NCBI GenBank assembly: GCA_042570545.1 | Contig: JBHPGJ010000003.1 | Location: 8,214 to 72,213, forward strand | DNA from: Patescibacteria group bacterium | GTDB lineage: Bacteria > Patescibacteriota > Patescibacteriia > JBHPGJ01 | Reading direction: 5' to 3' | DNA length: 64,000 bases | Shown: in pieces, positions 6,997 through 34,345 of the stretch | How the letters are laid out: each line of letters opens with the position of its first letter | Numbering within the stretch: the stretch's first letter is position 1 | Notes under the pieces: model-generated | Told to the model about the DNA's origin: nothing | The model's input: the letters and a program-made list of their open reading frames with translations, nothing else | Database searches by the model: none | Position numbers and translations under genes: made by a program

Positions 6997-7704
6997 TTAT
7001 AAATCTAGCAAGGCGCTCCAGCCTTGTCTTGAACGGCTGACCTCAGCCGGAAAAGTACCTTTAAATTTTGACACTCCTTCATGTATCTCGTAGTTCTTCA
7101 TGGTAAAGCCGGGTATTTCATTCATCAGTTCATTGATCTTATCTTCGAAAAATTCCTCCGCCTGTTCTTGATAATTTTCGGGTACGGTAAATATGCCTAA
7201 TTTGGCCTGGTCAATCTCTAGATCAATTGTATTGGTTGCTACTTGATCGACCATCACTTTTACATAAACCGGAGCTTTGATATACCGATTCAACATAGTA
7301 GAAATTTCCAGTCCCCCTTCTATTTTTTTAACTTGAACATCAGAAAAGATCGGGTCATCGCCCTCAAAGCGCTGCAGCCAGGAAGTGATCTCTTCATTAT
7401 TAGTACTAGTATCAACTTCTAATGTGCCGCTGAACAAATCATCAGCCCCGCTGGCATAATCGGCCGGGTCGCCGACAATTTTCATTGGTATCTTTTTCTT
7501 AATACTGGCCAAATCTTCAGCGCTGGTTTCGACACCCAGATCTTTTGGCTTATTCATACCAAAGACGGCCGAGATGCCAGGTATAGAATAAAGGCCAGTA
7601 GCACCAATGCCTATTATCAATACTAACAACACCGCAACAATAATTATAATCGCCAACCTTAAGCGATGTCTTTTTTTGGGGACTTCTTTTTTCTCTTCTT
7701 CCAT
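6997..7704 (-). CDS. Membrane-anchored protein, tandem paralog 2 (Lys-rich N-terminus, single TM, conserved G-L-x-x-I-P-G motif)
   Basis: 235 aa. KKEVPKKRHRLRL, then a TM, then GLYSIPGISAVFGMNKPKDLGVE. Shares architecture and motifs with the adjacent upstream gene. Confidence 0.6.
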   Translation of the reverse strand: MEEEKKEVPKKRHRLRLAIIIIVAVLLVLIIGIGATGLYSIPGISAVFGMNKPKDLGVETSAEDLASIKKKIPMKIVGDPADYASGADDLFSGTLEVDTSTNNEEITSWLQRFEGDDPIFSDVQVKKIEGGLEISTMLNRYIKAPVYVKVMVDQVATNTIDLEIDQAKLGIFTVPENYQEQAEEFFEDKINELMNEIPGFTMKNYEIHEGVSKFKGTFPAEVSRSRQGWSALLDL

Positions 7705-7728: not shown

Positions 7729-8448
7729 TTACTCTACTAATTCAATTGTCTCTGGATAGGTGCCTTTAAAATCAACGAAGTTATCTTTAAAAATCAGTCG
7801 TTCGATGCTAAAACCTTCCACCAAACTCATACGATCACTTACCAACTCAGTGGCTGCTTCTTCAAATTGCTGGACAAAATTCTGAGGAATTGGTAGGCGA
7901 CCAATCTTGATCTGTTTGACGTCAAAAGACAAGGTCTTGTCCTTTGTCGTGGTAATATCCGATTTTATGTATATGGGCGAACTGATAAATTCATTTAATT
8001 TAAACGAGGCCTCAGCTCCGCCGTCATAAAATCTAACCTGAATACTTTCAAATACACCTGAGTTTTGAAAACGATCATTTACAAATGAAGAAAATTCTTC
8101 TGAAGTAACATCATTGGTGACCGGAACTGAACCGGTATAAACTCTATCAACCTCTAAGGGCGAGGTCGATGGTGGCGTGGGCAACTCTGATAATTTCCAG
8201 GGAGTTTTGGCCAGACCCGACGTGATCGCCTCATCACTTATCTCAACGCCCAGATCTATCGGCTTATGACTGCCGAATAAGTGAGTTAGCCCGGGAATAT
8301 TGAATAACCCGGTATAGCCGATAGCTAACAATGGCAAGATGACAAAAATAAAGAGGATAATTGATATCCATATCCATTTTTTCTTGCTTTTCTTTTTTGG
8401 TTTTTCCTCCTCTGGTTTATCTGGTTTGGATTCTGACTGTTCGTCCAT
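7729..8448 (-). CDS. Membrane-anchored protein, tandem paralog 1
   Basis: 239 aa. KPKKKSKKKW, then a TM, then GLFNIPGLTHLFGSHKPIDLGVE. Same architecture as 6997..7704. Confidence 0.6.
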   Translation of the reverse strand: MDEQSESKPDKPEEEKPKKKSKKKWIWISIILFIFVILPLLAIGYTGLFNIPGLTHLFGSHKPIDLGVEISDEAITSGLAKTPWKLSELPTPPSTSPLEVDRVYTGSVPVTNDVTSEEFSSFVNDRFQNSGVFESIQVRFYDGGAEASFKLNEFISSPIYIKSDITTTKDKTLSFDVKQIKIGRLPIPQNFVQQFEEAATELVSDRMSLVEGFSIERLIFKDNFVDFKGTYPETIELVE

Positions 8449-8996: not shown

Positions 8997-9779
8997 CTAC
9001 TGCATTAATGTATCAATTGCACTCTTAATCTGATCAACTGGCAGGGCTCCCGAAACTGGAACAGTATTGCCATCTTTATCAATCAGTACTGAGTATGGTG
9101 TTCCAGTCCCTCCGGCAGCATTAGCATCAGCTAAGTGCTCATTTACCTTATCGGTATATTTACCACTATCTAAACAAGATTCAAATTCACTTCTATCCAA
9201 ACCAATATCAGCGGCAATTTCTGGAAGCTGCTCAGGCCTCAACCCATTATTAGAAGGTGTAACTTCAAACAATGCATCTACAAACTCCCAAAAACCATCG
9301 TTGCCTCCCAATTCGGCGGCACATTCTGAGGCCTCGGCTTCATTGCGTGCTTTACTGTGCAGTGACTCAAGTGGAAAATGTCGATAAACCCAGGCCACTT
9401 TACCATCATAATCATCAACTACTTGCTGCATAGTTGGGTGGAATCTTTTACAGAATGGACATTCGAGATCAGAAAATTCCACTAATACTACTTCGGCTTT
9501 ATTCAAGTCTCCTTTAACATGATCTTCATCAGTTACCGGCTTAATACTTATCGCACCCTCTGAGGGTAGAGTTGGCTCGGTTGGTATTGTATTTTCATCA
9601 ACTTCAGTTTTTGCACTAGCCACCGATCCGCTACTGTCATCACTCAGCAATATACTTGTGCTTATCACAAACCCAGTTGTTACCGCTAAAAAGATAGCTA
9701 CTAGTAATCCAAAGAAGAAAGATTTTTTCGGACCTAATAAATTTAATATACTTTTTTTTGACTGTTCGTTATTAATCAT
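8997..9779 (-). CDS. DsbA-family thiol:disulfide oxidoreductase (thioredoxin fold), membrane-anchored
   Basis: 260 aa. N-terminal TM, then CPFC active-site motif (EFSDLECPFCKRFHP) and a DsbA-like fold with a cis-Pro region (GTPYSVLID). Overlaps the upstream gene's stop by 8 nt. Confidence 0.8.
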   Translation of the reverse strand: MINNEQSKKSILNLLGPKKSFFFGLLVAIFLAVTTGFVISTSILLSDDSSGSVASAKTEVDENTIPTEPTLPSEGAISIKPVTDEDHVKGDLNKAEVVLVEFSDLECPFCKRFHPTMQQVVDDYDGKVAWVYRHFPLESLHSKARNEAEASECAAELGGNDGFWEFVDALFEVTPSNNGLRPEQLPEIAADIGLDRSEFESCLDSGKYTDKVNEHLADANAAGGTGTPYSVLIDKDGNTVPVSGALPVDQIKSAIDTLMQ

Positions 9780-10722
9780 TATGTTCTTCCTTTAATTTAT
9801 AAGCCTCTGGGCCTAGATCCAAATCAATCTCTGCCCAGATTTTTAATTCTGGAGTTTCATCAAGAGTTGGGTTAGCCAGTATAGACACTGTTTTGAAGAA
9901 TCTGCCACTTGGTTCTTCGTGAAGATTAGGATCAAAACTAACTGTTAGTATGCCCTCATCTCCGGGCAAAAGAGTAGAATTAGATATCTCAGCAGATGTA
10001 CAGGCACAGCTGGCTGGCGTGCCGGTTACATCAATTTTCTCTTCACCATTATAGATAAAGGGAAAATCATATTCGATTATACCAGCACTTTGTTTAATAA
10101 CTCCAAAATCATGTTCCACCTCATTAAACGCAAAATCACCCAAGACTGATTGATAGCTAGATGAAGATTTGGTTTGCTGTTTCTCAAAATCATCAGCATA
10201 CATAACATCACCCGTTGTTTGTAATTCTATAACTGAACCAACGCCAGCATTGCTAGCAGTATAAGTTAGCTGTTTATCCGGCTCGGCACTGGTAGTAAGA
10301 TATACTGAACGCTGAATCGGGCCAACAGCTTGAGGGCCATGAGCCAATGGATCAAAAACTACATGTACTTTAAAGTTATCACCCGGATCAACTACACCGT
10401 TCCAGGTGCTATTGTTATGCATCCCAAATTTTGCAGAAGTAGTTCCATCTGATAATTCCACAAAGGCGGTGGTGCACATACATGAAGTTTCGCCAGTTTT
10501 TATGACTAGTGGTTCGTTAGATTCATTTTTTAGGGTAAAGATGTGATTAACATCACCACCCATTATGTCGATATTTTCCCAATCGTGCGTAACTATAGCA
10601 TTGGCAGCAATGGCCCCTGATGGCCAGGCGATTTCAGCAGCCGGGTTTTTACCGCCAAATATCAATATGGCTGATATTCCAGCAATGATCACGCCACCGA
10701 TAATAAACCATGAAGTTTTCAT
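9772..10722 (-). CDS. Secreted protein with two DUF1573-like domains, each carrying a CxC motif
   Basis: 316 aa with a signal/anchor. The S-C-x-C-T signature occurs twice (GETSCMCTTAFVE; PASCACTSAEIS), each within a beta-rich, roughly 120-aa module. Confidence 0.55.
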   Translation of the reverse strand: MKTSWFIIGGVIIAGISAILIFGGKNPAAEIAWPSGAIAANAIVTHDWENIDIMGGDVNHIFTLKNESNEPLVIKTGETSCMCTTAFVELSDGTTSAKFGMHNNSTWNGVVDPGDNFKVHVVFDPLAHGPQAVGPIQRSVYLTTSAEPDKQLTYTASNAGVGSVIELQTTGDVMYADDFEKQQTKSSSSYQSVLGDFAFNEVEHDFGVIKQSAGIIEYDFPFIYNGEEKIDVTGTPASCACTSAEISNSTLLPGDEGILTVSFDPNLHEEPSGRFFKTVSILANPTLDETPELKIWAEIDLDLGPEAYKLKEEHND

Positions 10723-10772
10723 AAGATAAAAAACGTTAATTGTTTAAACGTATAGTTAAAACTAAATGGTTT

Positions 10773-11114
10773 TTACTCGATTAAAATAGTACTGCCAACA
10801 AGATTAGTCGGCCAAAGTAATATCTTATCTTCTTTCTTAATCCAACTGCTAAAATTATCGGACTTAGTGAATTGTACAAAGCTAGTTGCCAGCAGTGCAA
10901 TCACCGCGCCGACGACAATAGTTATTGCGGTTTTTTGGTATGGACCAGCCAAAACAAGGCAATGCTGCAGACAATTATTGTCTATGCCACAAGCACCAGC
11001 TTGACAGGTAGCTCCAGAATTTACGCTAGCATGTATTGTATTGTGTGGTACAAAGATAAAAACTACGCTTATTACTAATATGGCAAATATTTGTACCGCT
11101 GCTAGCTTTTTCAT
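10773..11114 (-). CDS. Small Cys-rich two-TM protein (CQAGACGIDNNCLQHC between the helices)
   Basis: 113 aa: TM1, then a 4-Cys cluster, then TM2. Sits directly upstream of the DUF1573 and DsbA genes on the same strand. Confidence 0.45.
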   Translation of the reverse strand: MKKLAAVQIFAILVISVVFIFVPHNTIHASVNSGATCQAGACGIDNNCLQHCLVLAGPYQKTAITIVVGAVIALLATSFVQFTKSDNFSSWIKKEDKILLWPTNLVGSTILIE

Positions 11115-11173: not shown

Positions 11174-11866
11174 TTAAAACAATGAATAAACAATTACAGC
11201 CACCCCGCCAATTATACCCAGATAACCTAATATCTTCATTAATCCCGCTGTCCTGGCCAGATCTTTCTCCACTTGTTTCTCAGATTTATAGCTTAGAATA
11301 AAATCACCCTGACCTTTTTGTAGTACCATATTATTTTGATCACCGCCAACATAACCATAAGCATATACCGGACCACCAACTAGCAAAGCCTCTTCTTTTA
11401 CTTTATTCTGATGACCAGCCAGCATATTAACCACTCCCTTAAGTACCGGATTGTTAAGTTCGTCACCGGGACGTACTATTTGTTCGCCTAAAGATTGGGG
11501 TTCAATATTAGCACCCTGCGGATTGACAGCCAATTGTCCGGTGCTGTCCTGGATATAAAACGGCGCACTCTGTTTGTCGGAACTGGTTTTTTCCCAACGG
11601 CGCTGTTCGCGGCCCTGGTTGTCTTGAGTAACCGTTTCGCGCTGCAGTTCATATTCATAGTAAACACAATCGCGCTGGGTAAAGGGAGTTTTTAAAGATT
11701 GATTTGAGCCAACGGTGCCAATAATTTTAACAATTTGTCCGGGCTGGACCTTGTCCACCGTTAACGCCTGAGTTTGCTTAAGACTGGCGTGAGTTTGTTT
11801 TTTTCGTTTAGCCAAAAATATTAATAAGGCTCCTATTGCCATGGCTATTAATCCACCATATAACAT
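11174..11866 (-). CDS. Membrane protein with N- and C-terminal TM helices flanking a beta-rich domain (GIDE-like topology)
   Basis: 230 aa. TM at residues 1-20 and at the C-terminus (ILGYLGIIGGVAVIVYSLF). Confidence 0.45.
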   Translation of the reverse strand: MLYGGLIAMAIGALLIFLAKRKKQTHASLKQTQALTVDKVQPGQIVKIIGTVGSNQSLKTPFTQRDCVYYEYELQRETVTQDNQGREQRRWEKTSSDKQSAPFYIQDSTGQLAVNPQGANIEPQSLGEQIVRPGDELNNPVLKGVVNMLAGHQNKVKEEALLVGGPVYAYGYVGGDQNNMVLQKGQGDFILSYKSEKQVEKDLARTAGLMKILGYLGIIGGVAVIVYSLF

Positions 11867-12129: not shown

Positions 12130-12208
12130 GTGTAAATTATAACTACTTATTGCTATTAATGCAAAATAAAGCTGCCACGTCTGGATGACATGGCAACTGT
12201 AATGATTG

Positions 12209-13271: not shown

Positions 13272-13754
13272 TTATTCTTTCTCCTTATTAATCTTAAGAA
13301 TATTTCTAGCGCTCAGTCCAGCCACCAGGGCGATTAGGAAGATTGATGCGCCGATAAAGCAAGGTGTAGTGTAGGGATTATTAACCAGCAATCCAGAACA
13401 ACCGATGACTTCATCTGTTTCAGCTGAATAATATTTCCATAATTCATAAATATTAACTGACCAGGCAAAAATTACACTGGCCACAAGCAGCCATATTAGT
13501 TTTTTCTGAGAGGAATATTGATGATCCGATGACTTGTTATAGATTACAGCTGACCAAATAAAGGCTACTAGAAAGGCAAAAGCGCCATAAAAGCATGGCG
13601 TTATCACCGGATTTGGATAGGTACAATCATCTACTTTAAAAATGGTACCTTCTTCGGTAATGAACCGATCAAAGTCCTGATAAACAGTAAACCAAGCGAA
13701 GGCCGTACCGGCCAGTAATACTATCATTTGAATTATTAAAATTGAATTTCTCAT
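13272..13754 (-). CDS. 4-TM membrane protein built from an internal duplication, each repeat carrying a Cys pair in the predicted outward loop
   Basis: 160 aa. Repeat 1 is TM, then DDCTYPNPVITPCFYGAFAFLVAF. Repeat 2 is TM, then GCSGLLVNNPYTTPCFIGASIFLIAL. Basic cytoplasmic loop and tail (QKK; KINKEKE). Confidence 0.55.
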   Translation of the reverse strand: MRNSILIIQMIVLLAGTAFAWFTVYQDFDRFITEEGTIFKVDDCTYPNPVITPCFYGAFAFLVAFIWSAVIYNKSSDHQYSSQKKLIWLLVASVIFAWSVNIYELWKYYSAETDEVIGCSGLLVNNPYTTPCFIGASIFLIALVAGLSARNILKINKEKE

Positions 13755-14416: not shown

Positions 14417-17400
14417 CTATTCACTTATTTCCTCTCTGGGAATATATAAATCTTTTGACACACAAGTTCCATTCTCCTGACATCTCTTATTAGACGAACA
14501 GCCACAAACCTGGCAGTCGTTAATTAACTCATTATCCTCACAGAATAATGGCTTTTTTGACGAACATTCATTGATATAGGTCTTATCCGAACACTGCATT
14601 TTGAAATTACCAGTATGACGATTGTCATGCGAGAAGAGTGGCCAATCATTAATAGAGGGGATTTCCGGCACTCCTAAATCCCACACATAAATAGAACCAC
14701 GTTGCTTAGACCTATCATTAATAAAATCTTTATCGCGATTAGAGGTGGCTACGAGCTCCAATAAATTATCACCGTCAAGATCCACAATCATTGCTGGCGC
14801 GAGAGAATAAGACTCTGTGAGCTTTGGAAAGTCGGCTAATAGAGTGCCATCAAAATTCCAGGCAAAAACACCGCCACCATCATAAATACTACTATAATCA
14901 GTGGTGATAATCTCTGGTTCGCCGTCATTGTCTATATCTGCAGTAACGCTGCCGTATACATCAACCCAGGATGGGTTTTGTGGCCAGTCCTTGGCTATTG
15001 ATCCATCATGCTCAATCACAAATGTTTCAATATTATCATTACTAATTACCACTTCCAGGGTACCGTCTCCTTCAAAATCCGTTAGAGCAGGTGAAGAAAA
15101 GAAGTTGCCACCGCCTTGCAGGGCTGGCCAGCCTGTTAAATCTTGTCCATTTTTATCTAAGGCATAAACACCAAGGTCGTCCATCGTTCCAAATATTATA
15201 TCCGCGTTACCATCATTATCAATATCCCCAACTGCTGGTGAGTTAAATATATTTCCATCAATATCCACTGGCCAGCCGTTTACATATGAACAGTCAGAAT
15301 TAAGAACATTAATTCTTCCTGCAGATCTTTGATAGCCCACTTCTCTTAAGCTGATAATTACAATTTCTAACTCCTGATCTTCATCAAAGTTACCAACTGC
15401 TGGAGTGCCATATTCAACAAACCAATATTGATATGTAAAAGTATCAGTTAAGGTACATGTGGAGACAGGTGATGCATCATTATTAAGAATCTTAATTATA
15501 TTATCTTCTCCTTGTTGATCATGAATAATAACCTCAAGTTGCCCGTCTAGATCCAGATCCGCCATAGCCAGGCCTGTAATCTCTGATTCAAAATCCACTG
15601 GCCATCCTGGCACTTCTGATCCGTCTAAATTATAAGCATGAATTTGAGACGGTGAGGGTGAAAATCCCCAATTTTGAAAATGAACAACTATTTCATCTTT
15701 GCTATCATTATCAATGTCACCGACTACTGGTTTGTGCATATTTCCTCCAAGTAGTTTATCCCCGCTTACCCCGACATCAATCAAACCAATTTCATTTCCT
15801 GAAGCATTGTATATATGTAATTGGGGGGGGCAGTCACCAGCGTAAAATACTATCTCATTTTTACCATCGCCGTTAAAATCACCGACATTACCATCAAGAT
15901 CACCAGCCCATGCTTTACAATCAGCCAGTTCATGATCAATTCGCACAGGCCAACCCATTTTAAAATTATCAAAATATAATACTACCGTCTCCTCAGAATC
16001 GGAGTATATATCATAATTAACCATTAGTCTCAGCTCATATAAACCCTTGCTACCAATAACAGACGTATCCCAATATCCAATAATACTTTCATCAGTGTCA
16101 TCTAGCGTTAATCCAACATTGGACCAGTCGCCATCACTTATACGCCACTCAAGCACTGAATTTATTATATGATGCCCTTTTAAATCGCCTTTTATAACCA
16201 ATTCGTCGCCTATTCTATATATATCGTAATTCAACGGCTCATTAATTTTTACATTACTCACAAATATTGGAATAGTTTGTACAGACGATAAACCGCTCCC
16301 GTTAAAGACTTCGAGCTTCAAAGATATAGTATTATCCGGTGCGACCAAAGTATCAAGGCTGCCTAATGTCCCTCTATCAACCTCTAAAGTACCACTATTT
16401 TCTAGAGTGATGCCCTCGGTATACCACTGAGTTACTTCCTCTGGTTCGCCAACACCCCATGAAAGAGTATAATGGTCAAAGGTTGCTGTTTCCGAGGTGC
16501 CTTTTTTTGCCACACCGCTAATATTGATAGAATCTGTAACTTCATCATAATAAGTCGGGATCATAATACCTGCCAAGGGTTCATCAAATGTTGGCATTTT
16601 AATCGGAGTTTCGGGATCCCCAATCACATTTAGCTCATAAGCAACAAATCGTATATAAGGATCAGACAAATTACCAAAATTCTTAAACTTAGACTGGTAA
16701 TTTGCTTTTGCAATATTAGTAATGCCATCTACTATCATCGTATCAACAAACTGCCGATGAAACCTTTGCGAAGGCCCGTCTGTGGAATCAAATCTACCCC
16801 ACCCAAATCTGGAATTTCCAACAAAAGCAAATGCTCCGTTGTCATCCAGCACAAAATGCTCTGCAATAGAATCAGATTCTGTATAATCTCCCTCGTAATT
16901 CCAGTTGTCAAATGAGGCTGGATAGCATCCCTGAGAATATACCAAGAAATAATCTGTATTGGTCAGTTGATCCAAATCAGTATCTCCGCTGTCACCACAA
17001 TATGATCCTGGCGAATTAAACGGCGCATGACATAATTTCATATTATAAAGCGTACTGGAATGGCCTAAGTGGTTGATAAAATTAACGCCCTGATTCATGA
17101 TTTCGATTAATTCTGTATTAGACCATGAATAAACTTCAGAATCATAAATAGGATCAATTAAATAGTCTTCGTATAATCCATTAGTATTGTAACCATCATG
17201 GTAACCGCCCCATTTGATCTGCTCCATTGTTTCTGTAGCATATTCAGCCACTGTACCAAATCCCAAATGCTCCCCAACTGTTAATGCTTTTTTTAAGTAG
17301 TCAGCATCTGATTGCTCATAAGCAATTGTTTTACTGACGAAGGTCTGAACTTCAGCTGATGAATCAACTGGCGCTCTGCCTATATAAACATCGCCCATCA

Positions 17401-18880
17401 TTGGCAACTCACCGCCGCCAATTCCATCTCCTGGCTCGGCAAATTTGCCATCGCCGTCATAATCAAAATTAGAATAAACCGTACCATAATATATATCACT
17501 TGGGATACCGGCGCTATCGCTTAAACCAAAATCATAAAAAAGTCTTGCTGGAATAATCATATCACCGCTTTCACCACCTACATCTCCACCATCACCATCA
17601 CCACCCAACAAAACGTATTCCGTTGTTGAATTCGCCCAGACATCTCTGATAAAATTCCTGATTCTGGAAGCGTTATCATCATGTCCGGCCACATGGCAAT
17701 AATCATCCCCGAAATAAAAGTTCAATGATCTCATGTAAGCACTGTTGCATTCATAGTCCGGATTAGAGAGAATTGATTCAACCGTAACAACGGTAGAGCT
17801 GATGGGATTATTCGGTCGGCTTGCTTTCCAGTCAGCCAGGGGCTGAAAATCACTAACAAATTCTTCGCTGGTGATAATGACATAATTAAAATCAGACTGC
17901 GCAGTTTGGGAGCTTTCATCACTGCCTGATTCAGTAATTAATTTTTCATAGGCAGGCTCATCAATAGACTTTCCTTTTTTATAAGTATTTAATTTATCAT
18001 AATTATCCACCCTCACTTTTACTTCTTCCTCATCAACGGGCAGCTTTCTAAAAGAGGCCGGCACTTCATATCCTGCAACCTCCTTTGTTTTTACCTCAAA
18101 AGAAATATCCGGATAATATTCAACTATTCTGTCTTTCGGAAAGTACTTAACCGGAAAAATGTTTAAGATCAATATTGAGTAACCCCGAAACTCCTGTATT
18201 GAAGCAATTTCATAATCTTTTACCGGGAATGGCTTGCTGGATTCATAAATCTCCGGATCAGGGGCAGTTCTTACAAATAACTCTGTTTTTAGATTCCCTT
18301 CATCATCCAATAAATACTTTGGCACCTCTCCTCCAAATTTTTTCTTGACAAGTTCAATGTCTGGAGACGGAACAAATTCATCATAAAAAATTAATTCATC
18401 TGAATGTGTGGTACTGACAATCTCATTAATAGCAGGTAGATACGACAGAGGAATCGGCTGTTGAACTGGTTCAATATTAACATTTTTGAACACTTGTTTA
18501 CTTTTTTTACTTATACTAACTGAGTCAACGTCATGTCCTTGCGGTAGCAGGATCCTTTTTGTCATAACTGGCAAACTGGGCTCTCCTAGATTTCCGATTG
18601 GATTCGTTCCTTCAATAGTAACTGAATGAAATCCAAAATCCTTATTATCAATCCTTGGTGTTGGGGCCGATACTTGCAAGGAAAATGTGGGTTTAACAAT
18701 TGATTTAAAAATTCCAATGTCTTTGCCAAATAAACCATAGCTTGCTGCCGCATAAGCAAAAAATCCAACAGAAATTACTAACAGTAAAGCTGTAACAATT
18801 AACGTTTTAGCATTAACATAAATTCCAATATCTGATTTTACTTCGGTTGATATTGATTCTGTTATTTTTTGAGAAGTCAT
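14417..18880 (-). CDS. Giant surface protein: N-terminal signal anchor, propeptide, C25 (gingipain-like) cysteine peptidase domain, a seven-bladed FG-GAP beta-propeller region, and a C-terminal Cys-rich (EGF-like) module
   Basis: 1487 aa. Catalytic His in INHLGHSS and catalytic Cys in VYSQGCYPASF (C25 His/Cys dyad context), plus HVAGHDDNA, YVLLGGDGDGGD and GNSRFGWG. Seven FG-GAP-like Ca-binding repeats: GDFNGDGKNEIV, GDIDNDSKDEIV, ADLDLDGQLEVI, GDIDNDGNADII, TDFEGDGTLEVV, ADIDNDGEPEII and VDLDGDNLLELV. The C-terminus has 10 Cys in about 60 aa. Confidence 0.8.
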   Translation of the reverse strand: MTSQKITESISTEVKSDIGIYVNAKTLIVTALLLVISVGFFAYAAASYGLFGKDIGIFKSIVKPTFSLQVSAPTPRIDNKDFGFHSVTIEGTNPIGNLGEPSLPVMTKRILLPQGHDVDSVSISKKSKQVFKNVNIEPVQQPIPLSYLPAINEIVSTTHSDELIFYDEFVPSPDIELVKKKFGGEVPKYLLDDEGNLKTELFVRTAPDPEIYESSKPFPVKDYEIASIQEFRGYSILILNIFPVKYFPKDRIVEYYPDISFEVKTKEVAGYEVPASFRKLPVDEEEVKVRVDNYDKLNTYKKGKSIDEPAYEKLITESGSDESSQTAQSDFNYVIITSEEFVSDFQPLADWKASRPNNPISSTVVTVESILSNPDYECNSAYMRSLNFYFGDDYCHVAGHDDNASRIRNFIRDVWANSTTEYVLLGGDGDGGDVGGESGDMIIPARLFYDFGLSDSAGIPSDIYYGTVYSNFDYDGDGKFAEPGDGIGGGELPMMGDVYIGRAPVDSSAEVQTFVSKTIAYEQSDADYLKKALTVGEHLGFGTVAEYATETMEQIKWGGYHDGYNTNGLYEDYLIDPIYDSEVYSWSNTELIEIMNQGVNFINHLGHSSTLYNMKLCHAPFNSPGSYCGDSGDTDLDQLTNTDYFLVYSQGCYPASFDNWNYEGDYTESDSIAEHFVLDDNGAFAFVGNSRFGWGRFDSTDGPSQRFHRQFVDTMIVDGITNIAKANYQSKFKNFGNLSDPYIRFVAYELNVIGDPETPIKMPTFDEPLAGIMIPTYYDEVTDSINISGVAKKGTSETATFDHYTLSWGVGEPEEVTQWYTEGITLENSGTLEVDRGTLGSLDTLVAPDNTISLKLEVFNGSGLSSVQTIPIFVSNVKINEPLNYDIYRIGDELVIKGDLKGHHIINSVLEWRISDGDWSNVGLTLDDTDESIIGYWDTSVIGSKGLYELRLMVNYDIYSDSEETVVLYFDNFKMGWPVRIDHELADCKAWAGDLDGNVGDFNGDGKNEIVFYAGDCPPQLHIYNASGNEIGLIDVGVSGDKLLGGNMHKPVVGDIDNDSKDEIVVHFQNWGFSPSPSQIHAYNLDGSEVPGWPVDFESEITGLAMADLDLDGQLEVIIHDQQGEDNIIKILNNDASPVSTCTLTDTFTYQYWFVEYGTPAVGNFDEDQELEIVIISLREVGYQRSAGRINVLNSDCSYVNGWPVDIDGNIFNSPAVGDIDNDGNADIIFGTMDDLGVYALDKNGQDLTGWPALQGGGNFFSSPALTDFEGDGTLEVVISNDNIETFVIEHDGSIAKDWPQNPSWVDVYGSVTADIDNDGEPEIITTDYSSIYDGGGVFAWNFDGTLLADFPKLTESYSLAPAMIVDLDGDNLLELVATSNRDKDFINDRSKQRGSIYVWDLGVPEIPSINDWPLFSHDNRHTGNFKMQCSDKTYINECSSKKPLFCEDNELINDCQVCGCSSNKRCQENGTCVSKDLYIPREEISE

Positions 18881-31095: not shown

Positions 31096-31668
31096 TCATC
31101 TGTCAACGAACTTTTTATAATATATTTTCTTATTTAGAACTGTTACCACTATTACAATAGCTAATAATCCCCACCATAAATCATCAGCGGTGTCTAAAAG
31201 ATTAGTAATCCTATTGGTATTGAACAATATATCACCAACGTATTCGGTAATCTCATATAATACTGTAAGTAGCATGGCTGATGATATTACTATAAAATTA
31301 TGCCAAAATTTGGATAAATTTAATTCTCCTTTTTGTTGAAAACCAGCGAAGATATACACAAATATAGCTGCCACCATAGCCGGACCAACCACGTGTACCA
31401 ATTGATCCCACCAGCCATAGCGACCATAAAGGTGAGCAAAATTACCGGCGGCATCAAACCATATGCCAGCAGCTACTAACAGCCAAAGCCAGCTTGGTAG
31501 ATGAGTGTTTCTTTTTTTAAAATAAGAATTAATACCCAAATACAAAAGCACTCCTATAACATTGGTACTGATAAGCGCTAACTTTCTCTCCAGATTGTCA
31601 TAATCCAAAAACAGCTCTAAAAATAGTAGCACCACTAAAGAAAATAAACTAAAAGTTCTAATTCCCAT
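31096..31668 (-). CDS. Polytopic membrane protein, unknown function
   Basis: 190 aa, about 5 TM. Start overlaps the ATPase gene stop. Confidence 0.45.
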   Translation of the reverse strand: MGIRTFSLFSLVVLLFLELFLDYDNLERKLALISTNVIGVLLYLGINSYFKKRNTHLPSWLWLLVAAGIWFDAAGNFAHLYGRYGWWDQLVHVVGPAMVAAIFVYIFAGFQQKGELNLSKFWHNFIVISSAMLLTVLYEITEYVGDILFNTNRITNLLDTADDLWWGLLAIVIVVTVLNKKIYYKKFVDR

Positions 31669-34345
31669 GTTGATGGCTTAAGCGGCGACGATAAAAAACT
31701 TTAATTAACTCAATCATCATTATCACAATAACCGCCGAGATAATTACCAATATCCACTCATTCAATCCAATTGATACAATTTGAAATACATTCTGTAGTG
31801 CCGGTAGATACAAAGCCAGTAACTGCATTATCAAACCTATGCCAATGGCAAATATCAACCAGCGGTTATTAAATGTTTTTAACGAGAATATCGAGTGTCT
31901 AAGCGATTTCACACTAAAGGCAAATAATAATGTATCAATTCCCAGCGCGGCAAAAGCTACGCTTCGAGCCAAGGCGGCATCACCGGTACTGTGCCAGTAA
32001 AACCAGAATAGGCCTAAGGTGATAAGGGCAGTGATAAGACTGACCGATATAATTAACATTCTCATCTGAGGGGAAATAATTGACTCCGAAGCCGGCCGTG
32101 GTGGCACCTTCATGCTTTCCACCTCTTCCGGTTCAACGGTCAAGGCAATGTGAGGAAAGCCATCAGTAATAAGATTAATCCACAAGATCTGGGCAGCTAT
32201 AAGCGGGAGGGGAAAATCTTTAATCCATATACTGATAATCAAGCTGGTTCCAATTAAGATTACTTGAGTGAAGCTATCAGCAATTAAATACGTTACCAGT
32301 TTCCTCATATTATCAAAAATAACCCGCCCTTGGCGGATAGCCGATACTATCGATTTAAAATTATTATCCATCAATACCATACTGGCCGTCTCTTTGGCTA
32401 CAGCCGTACCCGAACCTAGAGCCACTCCGATATCAGCTGAGCGCAGGGCTGGGGCATCGTTAACACCATCACCAGTCATAGCTACTACCTCTCCTCTGGC
32501 CTGCAGGGCATCGACAATGCGTAATTTATCACGCGGTGATACCCGGGCGTAAACAGAAACTTTTTCTACTCGCTCAACTAGATCGTGATCGGATAAAGCC
32601 TTTAATTCATCACCATCTAATATATTCTGACTTTCATTGGGTAGGCCCAGTTCGCCGGCGATAGCCTTAGCTGTATTGTGATGATCGCCGGTAATCATGG
32701 CTACTTTAACACCGGCTTGTTTTACGCTTTCTATGGTTTCATTAACCGATGCCCGCAATGGATCTTTAATAATTACAAAACCAGTGAATATTAATGGTGT
32801 TTCTAAAATGTTAAGATCATGAAAAGCATTTACTTTTGGTCCGACTGAACTATAAGCCAGAGCCAACAAACGTAGTCCTTTGCCGCTTAATTGATCAAAT
32901 TTATGCCTTAATTTGTCTCGGTGGTCTTTACTTAATCCTTTTACCTTATCACCATCTAAATAGCGGTCAGACATATTAAGTATGTTTTCCGGTGCTCCTT
33001 TAGCCAATAATTGGCGGTGTTTTTTTTCAGCCCGATGCAGTGTCATCATATATTTTCGTTCGGAGCTGAAAGGTATGGTATCCAATCGCGGCATTTCCTT
33101 ATCTAAACGTGATTTGCGAAAACCTAATTTATTACCAGCGGCCAACAAGGCTCGTTCCGTGGGATTGCCGATCACCTTCCAGTCTTTTAATTCAGCATCT
33201 TCATTTTCAATAAAAGCATCATTGCAGAGCATGCCGATCTTTAATAACTGAACAACATGTTCAGGATGTTTGCTTTCAGCCGATATTTTATCAGTATCAT
33301 ATTCGTTATCACTAGCAATGATTCCTACTACGTGCATTTGGCCCTCGGTTAGAGTTCCAGTCTTATCAGTGCAAATAATAGTAGTAGAACCTAGTGTTTC
33401 GGCAGCTAATAATCTTCTTGTTAAGGCTTTCTTTTTTAACATCCGCTGCATGCCAATTGTTAAAATAACAGTAATGCCGATGACTAACCCCTCGGGTACC
33501 GCCGCTACCGCTACTGCTACAGCGGTGGTAAACATTTGTACCACATCTTTGTTGGCAATCACCCCAATTGAAAAAATTAAGATACTTATGGCCAGTACTA
33601 TATAACTTAAAGTTTTACCTAAGTTTTGTAACTGTTTTTGCAGAGGCGTAGATTCTTCCTTGGTCGCTTTTACCAGTTCAGCAATTTTTCCAATTTCTGT
33701 TTTATTTTTAGTACTAACAACTACCGCTCGGCCTTCACCGCGGGCAACGGTAGTCCCCATAAACACCATGTTAGCCTGGTCACCGACGCCTTTATCTTCA
33801 GATATTTCTGACTCAATTTTTTCTACTGGAAATGATTCTCCGGTCAAGGCCGCTTCGTTTGTATAAAGCGATACCGACTTAATGACCCGGCAGTCAGCGG
33901 GGATGTGATCACCGGTACGTAAAACCACAATATCACCGACCACAACATAAGTAGAATCTATTTGATGTTCTTTACCATCACGTAAAACCACTGACTTGTA
34001 AGTAACCGCTTCACGAAGTTTATCTAATGACCTTTCGGCCCTATATTCTTGTAGCCAACCGACGACAACATTGATAATAACCGCTACGGCTATAATCCAG
34101 CCATCGACAAAATCGCCCAAGGCAAAGCTAATAGTGCTGGCTGCTACTAGGATCAGAACCATAGCCGATCTAAATTGATTAAAGAATATCTTTAAACCAG
34201 GCAAGGGCGGGGCCTTAGGCAGGATATTCTTACCTTGCTGAGTTAATCTTTTTTTAGCTTCTTCAACAGTCAGTCCATCGGCTATACTCTTAACTTTCTT
34301 TAGTACTGAATCAACTTTCTGTTGATACCACTTTTTACTAGGCAT
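31658..34345 (-). CDS. P-type ATPase, type IIA-like cation (Ca2+/Mg2+) transporter
   Basis: 895 aa. TGES actuator motif (LTGES), phosphorylation motif CTDKTGTLT, MITGDHHNTA, and hinge GDGVNDAPAL. About 10 TM. Confidence 0.9.
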   Translation of the reverse strand: MPSKKWYQQKVDSVLKKVKSIADGLTVEEAKKRLTQQGKNILPKAPPLPGLKIFFNQFRSAMVLILVAASTISFALGDFVDGWIIAVAVIINVVVGWLQEYRAERSLDKLREAVTYKSVVLRDGKEHQIDSTYVVVGDIVVLRTGDHIPADCRVIKSVSLYTNEAALTGESFPVEKIESEISEDKGVGDQANMVFMGTTVARGEGRAVVVSTKNKTEIGKIAELVKATKEESTPLQKQLQNLGKTLSYIVLAISILIFSIGVIANKDVVQMFTTAVAVAVAAVPEGLVIGITVILTIGMQRMLKKKALTRRLLAAETLGSTTIICTDKTGTLTEGQMHVVGIIASDNEYDTDKISAESKHPEHVVQLLKIGMLCNDAFIENEDAELKDWKVIGNPTERALLAAGNKLGFRKSRLDKEMPRLDTIPFSSERKYMMTLHRAEKKHRQLLAKGAPENILNMSDRYLDGDKVKGLSKDHRDKLRHKFDQLSGKGLRLLALAYSSVGPKVNAFHDLNILETPLIFTGFVIIKDPLRASVNETIESVKQAGVKVAMITGDHHNTAKAIAGELGLPNESQNILDGDELKALSDHDLVERVEKVSVYARVSPRDKLRIVDALQARGEVVAMTGDGVNDAPALRSADIGVALGSGTAVAKETASMVLMDNNFKSIVSAIRQGRVIFDNMRKLVTYLIADSFTQVILIGTSLIISIWIKDFPLPLIAAQILWINLITDGFPHIALTVEPEEVESMKVPPRPASESIISPQMRMLIISVSLITALITLGLFWFYWHSTGDAALARSVAFAALGIDTLLFAFSVKSLRHSIFSLKTFNNRWLIFAIGIGLIMQLLALYLPALQNVFQIVSIGLNEWILVIISAVIVIMMIELIKVFYRRRLSHQHGN

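Follow-up and report, generated by a model that had tools for sequence, protein, structure and literature searches.

Within a 64,000-nucleotide stretch of DNA from a Patescibacteria group bacterium (hereafter the 64-kb window), we identified three neighbouring genes, encoding a small membrane protein, a protein with two tandem DUF1573 domains and a DsbA-like thiol:disulfide oxidoreductase, that are probably the conserved core of a copper-homeostasis neighbourhood widespread in Patescibacteria (the candidate phyla radiation, CPR), in which a surface Cu(I) binder would work beside an Scs-like DsbA. The operon most likely handles copper rather than folding Cys-rich surface proteins, and our best reading is that it may form a module, comparable to Scs, that binds Cu(I) and maintains thiols outside the cytoplasm. 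Because the window is without copper genes, the copper assignment of its copy rests on relatives, by orthology and by the retention of every invariant residue.

The initial annotation of this DNA had described three co-directional genes that overlap or are tightly spaced, and the listing of open reading frames (ORFs) agrees with it. The small gene is separated from the DUF1573 gene by a gap of 50 nucleotides (nt), and the DUF1573 stop and the DsbA start share 8 nt, implying that the latter two genes may be translationally coupled. This three-gene module goes beyond chance, because the Cys residues of its CxC motifs are kept in 118-120 of 120 homologs and because the gene order recurs in relatives. 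Its features are as follows:

8997-9779, minus strand: membrane-anchored DsbA-like thiol:disulfide oxidoreductase, 260 amino acids (aa) (Pfam Thioredoxin_4 and DSBA)
9096-9110, minus strand: G-T-G-T-P cis-Pro loop of the DsbA-like protein (G-T-P at residues 226-228)
9450-9461, minus strand: CPFC active site of the DsbA-like protein, residues 107-110
9772-9779, minus strand: ATGATTAA, the 8 nt in which the DUF1573 stop overlaps the DsbA start
9772-10722, minus strand: membrane-anchored protein with two tandem DUF1573 immunoglobulin (Ig)-like domains, 316 aa (Pfam PF07610 and AlphaFold2 (AF2) model)
9814-10149, minus strand: DUF1573 domain 2, residues ~192-303 (homolog conservation and AF2 model)
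9910-9936, minus strand: domain 2 motif F-D-P-N-L-H268-E-E270-P
9997-10011, minus strand: domain 2 motif S238-C239-A-C241-T242
10198-10617, minus strand: DUF1573 domain 1, residues ~36-175 (homolog conservation and AF2 model)
10333-10356, minus strand: domain 1 motif F-D-P-L-A-H128-G-P
10417-10428, minus strand: domain 1 motif F-G-M101-H102
10471-10485, minus strand: domain 1 motif S80-C81-M82-C83-T84
10773-11114, minus strand: small membrane protein, 113 aa, CutF-like by motif (ORF, hydropathy and Cys positions)
10959-11006, minus strand: Cys cluster C37-x4-C42-x5-C48-L-Q-H51-C52 of the small protein (CQAGACGIDNNCLQHC), conserved core C48-x-x-H-C52

With conserved peptides of the DUF1573 protein as the only criterion, we retrieved 80 loci from as many GTDB species, annotated all their ORFs with phmmer seeds, and counted neighbours within 8 kb of the DUF1573 gene over 82 non-redundant loci. 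A CsoR regulator, a Cu P1B-ATPase or a multicopper oxidase was present in 70 of these 82 loci (85%); by chance, a 16-kb window in a ~1-Mb genome with one copA would hold that gene about 2% of the time. CsoR was found in 53 loci, a P1B-ATPase in 51, a multicopper oxidase in 17, DUF302 in 28 and rhodanese in 30. The first three neighbourhoods annotated with Pfam were all copper operons, arranged in the order csoR (PF02583), a small unannotated ORF, a double-DUF1573 gene with or without rhodanese, DUF302, copA (HMA plus E1-E2 ATPase) and a multicopper oxidase. In a separate metagenome set, cop genes were seen on 16 of 28 mostly short contigs. Thirty-four cluster ATPases displayed CPC, NX6YNX4P and MXXSS and 11 displayed CPH and MSXST, which we take to be the CopA and CopB copper signatures of the P1B-1 and P1B-3 types, respectively. 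Furthermore, the Cu(I) C-H-C fingerprint was retained in 38 of 54 CsoR-family regulators, and most loci carried canonical CsoR operators upstream of csoR, for example ATACCCCCTAGGGGTAT or TACCTATACTGGGTATAGGTA (ATACCCC-N3-GGGGTAT and variants).

DUF1573 domains were also found fused to other domains. In 35 of 120 homologs the double DUF1573 was followed by a C-terminal rhodanese with an intact C-R-S-G-x-x-S loop, and other fusions joined DUF1573 to a cupredoxin/Cu-oxidase domain (L046 6335-7825) or to a CxxC middle domain and DsbD-like transmembrane (TM) segments (L002 7646-9172); a variant of DUF1573 with DsbD-like TM segments, in L087 3023-4264, passed the DsbD_TM cutoff. A further composite protein of 463 aa (L086 524-1915), with cytoplasmic HMA, DsbD_2 transmembrane and outer cupredoxin domains, lies between csoR and copZ-copA. 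We also observed a conserved trio downstream of the DUF1573 gene (L005 8904-9834 and 9846-10292; L006 6223-7668), made up of a ~210-aa PCYCGC-like Cys-cluster protein (MISCEYCCG...ACGCAH) that recurs in 12 loci, an 84-90-aa protein ending in ...PKMVGGC and a membrane-anchored rhodanese.

DsbA was encoded in 30 of the 82 loci, directly adjacent and on the same strand in 15, and a DsbD/CcdA-like membrane protein in 19, with canonical CcdA in 7 more. The TM-anchored clade to which the window copy belongs has ten members (the window, L093, L019, L005, L006, L007, L017, L085, L086 and L087). Nine of them have DsbA in the cluster (adjacent in the window, L019, L017, L086 and L093), nine have an ORF of ~102-128 residues immediately upstream of the DUF1573 gene, and seven have copper genes; the L017 small ORF was listed as 160 aa, and a shorter internal start (~128 aa) was used in the alignment. 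It had been proposed initially that DUF1573 is linked to DsbA, an idea that a lack of conserved synteny would weaken. The neighbourhood survey found this synteny conserved, so that objection does not apply and the linkage stands.

In L005 and L085, CcdA directly follows DsbA. In L006 (8376-9737), L007 (8462-9511) and L086 (6644-7918), the gene directly after DsbA encodes a membrane protein like the N-terminal domain of cytochrome b, which has a His-rich outer N-terminus and may serve as an electron sink or source for DsbA. In addition, the gene that comes right after the cluster DsbA in at least 11 species encodes a four-TM protein of ~185 aa, which belongs to no Pfam family, has G-C-x-x-C-G embedded in the membrane and keeps a Cys at its C-terminus (L093 7954-8511, L080 9627-10181, L039, L055, L063, L068, L070, L077, L079, L081, L083 and L119). 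In CPR bacteria this protein may be the partner of DsbA, as a candidate analogue of DsbB/VKOR.

The 316-aa protein matched PF07610 in two stretches (92.9 bits against a gathering cutoff of 26.1; E=1.3e-26), and its only four Cys all fall within SCMCT (residues 80-84) and SCACT (residues 238-242), as expected from the initial description of a secreted protein with two S-C-x-C-T modules. An N-terminal anchor occupies residues 1-26. Searching 5.8 billion proteins, we recovered 182 homologs; those listed with an organism name were all from CPR (Patescibacteria, Peregrinibacteria, Gracilibacteria, Doudnabacteria and others), except one labelled Pacearchaeota, and roughly one in three homologs had a rhodanese domain at the C-terminus. 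In an alignment of 120 of the 182, domain 1 retained C81 in 118, C83 in 119, H128 in 119, M82 in 104 and M101 in 110 sequences, and domain 2 retained C239, C241, H268 and E270 in all 120. A lipoprotein box was present in 62 of the 120, which argues that the family is extracytoplasmic, and the thiol motifs of all three products are predicted to face outward at the outer face of the cell membrane.

In the AF2 model (mean pLDDT 88.9) the protein forms two seven-stranded beta-sandwiches. Each CxC sits in a turn between consecutive strands (72-79/84-89 in domain 1, 230-234/242-246 in domain 2), and the next long strand leads into the loop that holds the 'DPxxH' motif. The conserved loops of domain 2 (210-214, 236-242 and 264-273) match A-B, C-C' and E-F, three loops that would share one pole in a seven-strand s-type Ig topology. 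A PDB sequence search with the protein and a 26-sequence profile gave no significant solved relative (best 2qsv, E=0.32), and a PDB fold search placed 2qsv on top, followed by generic ASH/PapD-like Ig domains. The protein did not fall into the Cox11/CtaG fold or sequence family. Against the OS_HP2 family (NCBIfam NF041425) it scored 47.8 bits with a cutoff of 100, so it is related to this family and not a member of it; the gene has no in-frame UGA, and Cys occupies the selenocysteine position of OS_HP2. Selenoprotein forms of DUF1573 carry UGC (U, selenocysteine) in place of CGC (PMC9312934, PMC13188914), which argues that the first Cys of the CxC is chemically active. The variant fits metal binding and redox chemistry alike, because the same selenoproteome has selenocysteine in HMA-type metal sites. 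The CxC clearly marks a functional site and is not incidental.

We propose that the surface-tethered tandem DUF1573 protein would bind Cu(I) through the CxC and the invariant 'DPxxH' His of each Ig-like domain, with Met82 and Met101 contributing to the site of domain 1. Such sites would be of the Cys2His type, like those through which CsoR and Sco bind copper. We infer both this copper binding and the direction in which electrons would flow through the module. Copper would be taken up by the DUF1573 protein at the cell surface; in relatives, the protein would then hand the metal on to a multicopper oxidase or hold it once CopA/CopB has exported it. The coupled DsbA-like enzyme would act in a ScsC-like manner, repairing copper-mis-oxidised envelope thiols or disulfides and/or setting the redox state of the CxC, and its partner in relatives would be a CcdA/DsbD-like membrane protein or the 185-aa CxxC membrane protein. 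The Scs proteins offer a precedent, being a copper-induced DsbA-like/DsbD-like pair in which both ScsB and ScsC bind Cu(I) (PMC10907172). The small protein, with its C-x-x-H-C ectodomain, may act as a membrane-tethered CutF-like copper relay.

The layout of the small protein is a signal/TM segment at residues 1-31, a Cys/His ectodomain, a second TM segment at 61-84, a cytoplasmic tail and a C-terminal Glu. A small two-TM protein with four Cys had been noted initially. Both TM segments and Cys37, Cys42, Cys48 and Cys52 are indeed present, but only C48-x-x-H-C52 is conserved in relatives, some of which lack C37 and C42. Single-sequence searches of 5.8e9 and 1.8e9 proteins returned only the protein itself, as might be expected if it is fast-evolving, and its homologs were identified by gene position. 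Across 14 positional homologs, C48 and E113 are invariant, and the His and Cys of C-x-x-H-C are kept in the close clade. The small ORF of relatives has a signal/TM segment, C-x-x-H-C, a second TM segment, often W-x-P-P-x-Y-x-F, and an invariant C-terminal Glu (...TVxLLE). Pfam gave no family for the 14 members, including no match to DUF2946 at E<=1.

CutF of R. capsulatus is a 118-aa protein exported by the Sec pathway, whose C69-x-x-H72-C73 and C-terminal prolines are required for maturation of the multicopper oxidase CutO (PMC8456105). The published rule set for CutF-like proteins has six criteria, of which the window protein shows four, namely a length below 170 aa, no Pfam domain above threshold, an N-terminal signal-like hydrophobic segment (1-31) and a central CXXXC (C48-L-Q-H51-C52) (PMC8456105). 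As for the other two, the window copy reads L-W-P-T where a C-terminal PP is called for, and no copper gene neighbours it in the 64-kb window; the PP is present in L005 (both copies), L007, L086 and L087, and copper-gene neighbours in L005, L085 and L086.

The 260-aa protein matched Thioredoxin_4 (75.8 bits, E=5.7e-21) and DSBA (63.1 bits, E=4e-17), and it has the features of the DsbA-like family (PF01323/PF13462), that is, a thioredoxin fold with an inserted helical domain, a CxxC and a cis-Pro loop. Together with the N-terminal TM anchor and the CPFC, these matches bear out the membrane-anchored DsbA named in the initial annotation; a second Cys pair is formed by C153 and C202. The cluster DsbAs of relatives have CPFC in 26 of 33 cases and G-T-P in all 33. 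The closest solved chain was 4n30_A (residues 88-258, E=1.2e-20), which has the same CPFC and second Cys pair, and the ScsC structures 6nen, 6mhh, 4xvw and 4gxz matched only at E=2.5e-6 to 5.4e-4 and in the active-site region only. The window protein therefore belongs to the regular DsbA family and is not an ScsC ortholog. Pfam and NCBIfam models found no DsbB, VKOR or CcdA among 20 selected window ORFs, which were the ORFs scanned with VKOR/DsbB models, and phmmer seeds found no CcdA, cytochrome-b-like protein or 185-aa CxxC membrane protein among window ORFs of at least 40 aa. We considered a four-TM, four-Cys protein at 13272-13754 (minus strand) as a DsbA partner and rejected it, its neighbours in other genomes being unrelated to DsbA. 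This 160-aa protein has two pairs of loop Cys, C44/C54 and C119/C132, both with T-P-C-F at the end, and represents a family that is confined to CPR, counts at least 69 proteins, keeps all four Cys invariant and has no Pfam domain; a cupin gene adjoins it, also in L088.

Several observations weigh against a copper function. In the 64-kb window we found no csoR, copA/B or multicopper oxidase, no DUF302 and no CsoR-operator-like palindrome, and its sole P-type ATPase (31658-34345) is P2-type; the combination of csoR, Cu P1B-ATPase and operator that marks a CsoR-regulated copper operon is present in most relatives' loci and absent here. The nearest informative relatives, L019 and L093, likewise have no cop genes within 7-8 kb, and in L093, which at 58% identity is the closest relative, the locus forms an island rich in DsbA that holds four DsbA-like genes together with Lgt and the 185-aa CxxC membrane protein. 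The PDB fold searches yielded generic ASH/PapD-like Ig domains only and no metallochaperone, the window DsbA is nearer to 4n30_A than to ScsC, and a simple copper-chaperone model does not account for the frequent rhodanese fusion. Finally, the fingerprint reads C-H-H and not C-H-C in 16 of the 54 regulators. The C-H-H csoR genes (L063, L064, L070 and L075-L083) are mostly paired with CPH (CopB-type, P1B-3) ATPases, and their loci still have canonical ATACCCC-N3-GGGGTAT operators. The window module is a detached three-gene remnant, and its copy, separated from csoR and copA, presumably still serves copper handling.

The module had been suggested to be a disulfide-relay or metal-handling system dedicated to many Cys-rich surface proteins of the region. 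The proposed clients did not materialise, since the flanking membrane and surface proteins have 0-1 Cys each and no relative shows such a link. Of the two proposed activities, metal handling gains ground, specifically for copper (70/82 loci, CsoR operators and cupredoxin fusions), and the relay is less favoured. As a dedicated thiol-disulfide relay, the module would use its CxC motifs as redox-active disulfides on an Ig-like scaffold (DsbD-alpha/ScsB-alpha-like, or a CGC 'mini-PDI') and shuttle electrons among a membrane partner, DsbA and envelope substrates, with copper as the stress creating the demand and not as the ligand. We regard this as unlikely. The DUF1573-CxxC-DsbD-like fusions of L002 and L087 do resemble the alpha-beta-gamma logic of DsbD, and a relay would also suit the DsbA genes that 30 of 82 loci have next to or near DUF1573, with translational coupling in the window copy, the CcdA genes directly after DsbA in L005 and L085, the four DsbA-like genes around the cop-free DUF1573 gene of L093, and the selenocysteine-for-Cys variants, which are typical of redox sites. 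CXC peptides are mimics of PDI, and Erv2 and Mia40 use CxC shuttles. However, the invariant His/Glu near each CxC, the C-M-C and Met101 of domain 1 and the cupredoxin fusions would be left unexplained, as would the 85% of loci that are copper clusters with CsoR operators, and the window has no Cys-rich substrate set. The relay and copper models overlap rather than exclude each other, because ScsB and ScsC themselves bind Cu(I), and the CxC may also have a redox role.

A further alternative is a trafficking of sulfur, persulfide or selenium, which would suit the rhodanese that 35 of 120 homologs carry as a fusion with its C-R-S-G-x-x-S loop intact and that 30 of 82 loci encode; here the CxC would carry cargo from the fused rhodanese under a CstR-like (CsoR-family) persulfide sensor. 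The CsoR family does include persulfide sensors, a selenocysteine variant of DUF1573 exists, and reactive sulfur species have reportedly been linked to copper stress in one study. We nevertheless find this highly improbable: the regulators retain the His of a Cu(I) C-H-C (38) or C-H-H (16) fingerprint, Cu-type P1B ATPases serve as the partner transporters, multicopper oxidases and cupredoxins are found alongside, the window protein and the close clade have no rhodanese fusion, and no sulfur-oxidation gene (SQR, PDO or TusA) was found among the Pfam-annotated neighbours. Least credible of all, in our judgement, is that the genes have nothing specific in common, with a housekeeping DsbA lying beside a structural Ig-like surface protein whose CxC is a structural disulfide or metal site. 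The window's lack of a local copper gene or CsoR operator would suit such a view, as would the generic ASH/PapD-like fold, but conserved gene order, translational coupling and a CxC and His invariant across 120 homologs speak against it. Moreover, the selenocysteine substitution argues for chemistry at the first Cys, and the repeated independent fusions (rhodanese, cupredoxin, DsbD-like) and the 85% copper-cluster context would be unexpected for a passive protein.

Around the copper/thiol operon we recorded the following additional features and genes of the window:

6997-7704 and 7729-8448, minus strand: downstream of the DsbA gene, tandem paralogous membrane-anchored proteins of 235 and 239 aa, Cys-free, without a Pfam family, mutual match ~127 bits
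11121-11149, minus strand: possible operon start, where TTGAAA-17-TATACT shortly before the small gene matches a sigma-70-like promoter
11174-11866, minus strand: two-TM protein with a GIDE domain (PF12483, E=1e-16), directly upstream of the operon
12170-12198, minus strand: strong terminator-like hairpin that sets the upstream genes apart
14417-18880, minus strand: 1487-aa protein with a gingipain-type Peptidase_C25 domain, its propeptide and FG-GAP repeats

The only promoter-like match lies in the 59 nt between the GIDE-domain gene and the operon, and it is weak, such matches in the region being no more frequent than the shuffled expectation. A large surface protease like the 1487-aa protein is unusual for a CPR genome.

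DUF1573 is a large family without an assigned function, and in the literature searched DUF1573/PF07610 occurred in four papers, only in lists and tables and with no link to copper. The 70 of 82 copper clusters, the three kinds of fusion and the invariant CxC and His now suggest a concrete function that can be tested, either Cu(I) binding or a thiol relay. We put forward, tentatively and as somewhat less than an even prospect, that DUF1573 CxC domains are Ig-like modules of a class not recognised before, which bind Cu(I) outside the cytoplasm through Cys2His sites, have natural selenocysteine variants, couple copper export (CopA/CopB) to oxidation (multicopper oxidase/cupredoxin) and are kept reduced by DsbA and a DsbD-like or novel CxxC-membrane-protein branch. 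If true, this would possibly extend to many DUF1573 proteins of Bacteroidota and Planctomycetota and would mean that ultra-small CPR cells carry an elaborate surface copper/thiol defence drawn from largely uncharacterised families (DUF1573, the CutF-like protein, DUF302, the PCYCGC-like protein and the 185-aa CxxC membrane protein). Copper resistance operons are already known; the apparent novelty is that they have repeatedly recruited DUF1573 CxC domains, along with several other unannotated Cys proteins. These findings indicate that CPR/Patescibacteria, usually called metabolically minimal, keep a multi-component surface copper/thiol defence, and they offer candidates for the missing DsbA partners of organisms without DsbB or VKOR, as well as a rationale for the selenocysteine (UGC) forms of DUF1573.

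Among known Ig-like thiol proteins, Cox11 (CtaG) is a membrane-anchored Ig-like beta-sandwich with a C-x-C (CFCF) Cu(I) site beside a thioredoxin-fold partner. The window protein resembles it in its Ig-like C-x-C layout and its own thioredoxin-fold partner, and resembles Sco in the proposed Cys2His site, but no sequence relationship was seen to either and the DUF1573 fold is ASH/PapD-like; no cytochrome oxidase genes were found among the relatives' Pfam-annotated neighbours or among the part of the window ORFs scanned with Pfam. DsbD-alpha and ScsB-alpha are Ig-like redox domains with a C-x5-C under a cap loop. Like them, DUF1573 is an Ig-like extracytoplasmic domain with a putative reactive Cys pair, and in relatives it is fused to DsbD-type TM segments and a CxxC domain. 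It differs in having its CxC in a beta-turn, with no sequence similarity detected, and the tandem of the window stands on its own, lacking a TM conduit for electrons.

The relatives' clusters share with Gram-positive copper resistance operons of the csoR-copZ-copA and copB-mco kinds (M. tuberculosis CsoR, PMC4801387; S. aureus copB-mco, PMC6191537) the C-H-C CsoR, GC-tract inverted-repeat operators, and P1B-1 or P1B-3 ATPases with a multicopper oxidase in one cluster. Unlike those operons, the CPR clusters also encode DsbA, rhodanese, DUF302, DsbD-like proteins and tandem DUF1573 CxC proteins; in the window, the small protein, DUF1573 and DsbA are all that is left, with neither a regulator nor a pump.

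The small protein and CutF (cutFOG of Rhodobacter capsulatus, related to DUF2946) have in common a length of ~113-118 aa, a secreted or membrane location, no Pfam domain, a central C-x-x-H-C and poor sequence conservation; relatives add the PP motif and copper neighbourhoods, some beside multicopper oxidases. CutF-like proteins have been defined in Proteobacteria only (PMC8456105). In contrast to CutF, the window protein has a second hydrophobic segment between motif and C-terminus, W-P instead of PP, the invariant C-terminal Glu, and no multicopper oxidase in its window, and its 14 members do not match DUF2946.

Differences from Scs (ScsABCD of Salmonella; ScsB/ScsC of Caulobacter and Proteus; PMC10907172, PMC8900818) are that the DsbA of the window is no ortholog of ScsC, that the relatives are regulated by CsoR and not by CpxR, and that the CPR host is monoderm with membrane-tethered proteins. 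ScsA has a CX2C and a peroxidase-like signature rather than C-x-x-H-C, and scsABCD holds no counterpart of the tandem DUF1573 CxC protein. The two systems are alike in pairing an envelope DsbA-like enzyme with a small Cys-containing membrane protein and, in relatives, in having a DsbD/CcdA-like reductant transporter in a copper-responsive context and an Ig-like thiol domain fused to DsbD-type TM segments, as in ScsB-alpha.

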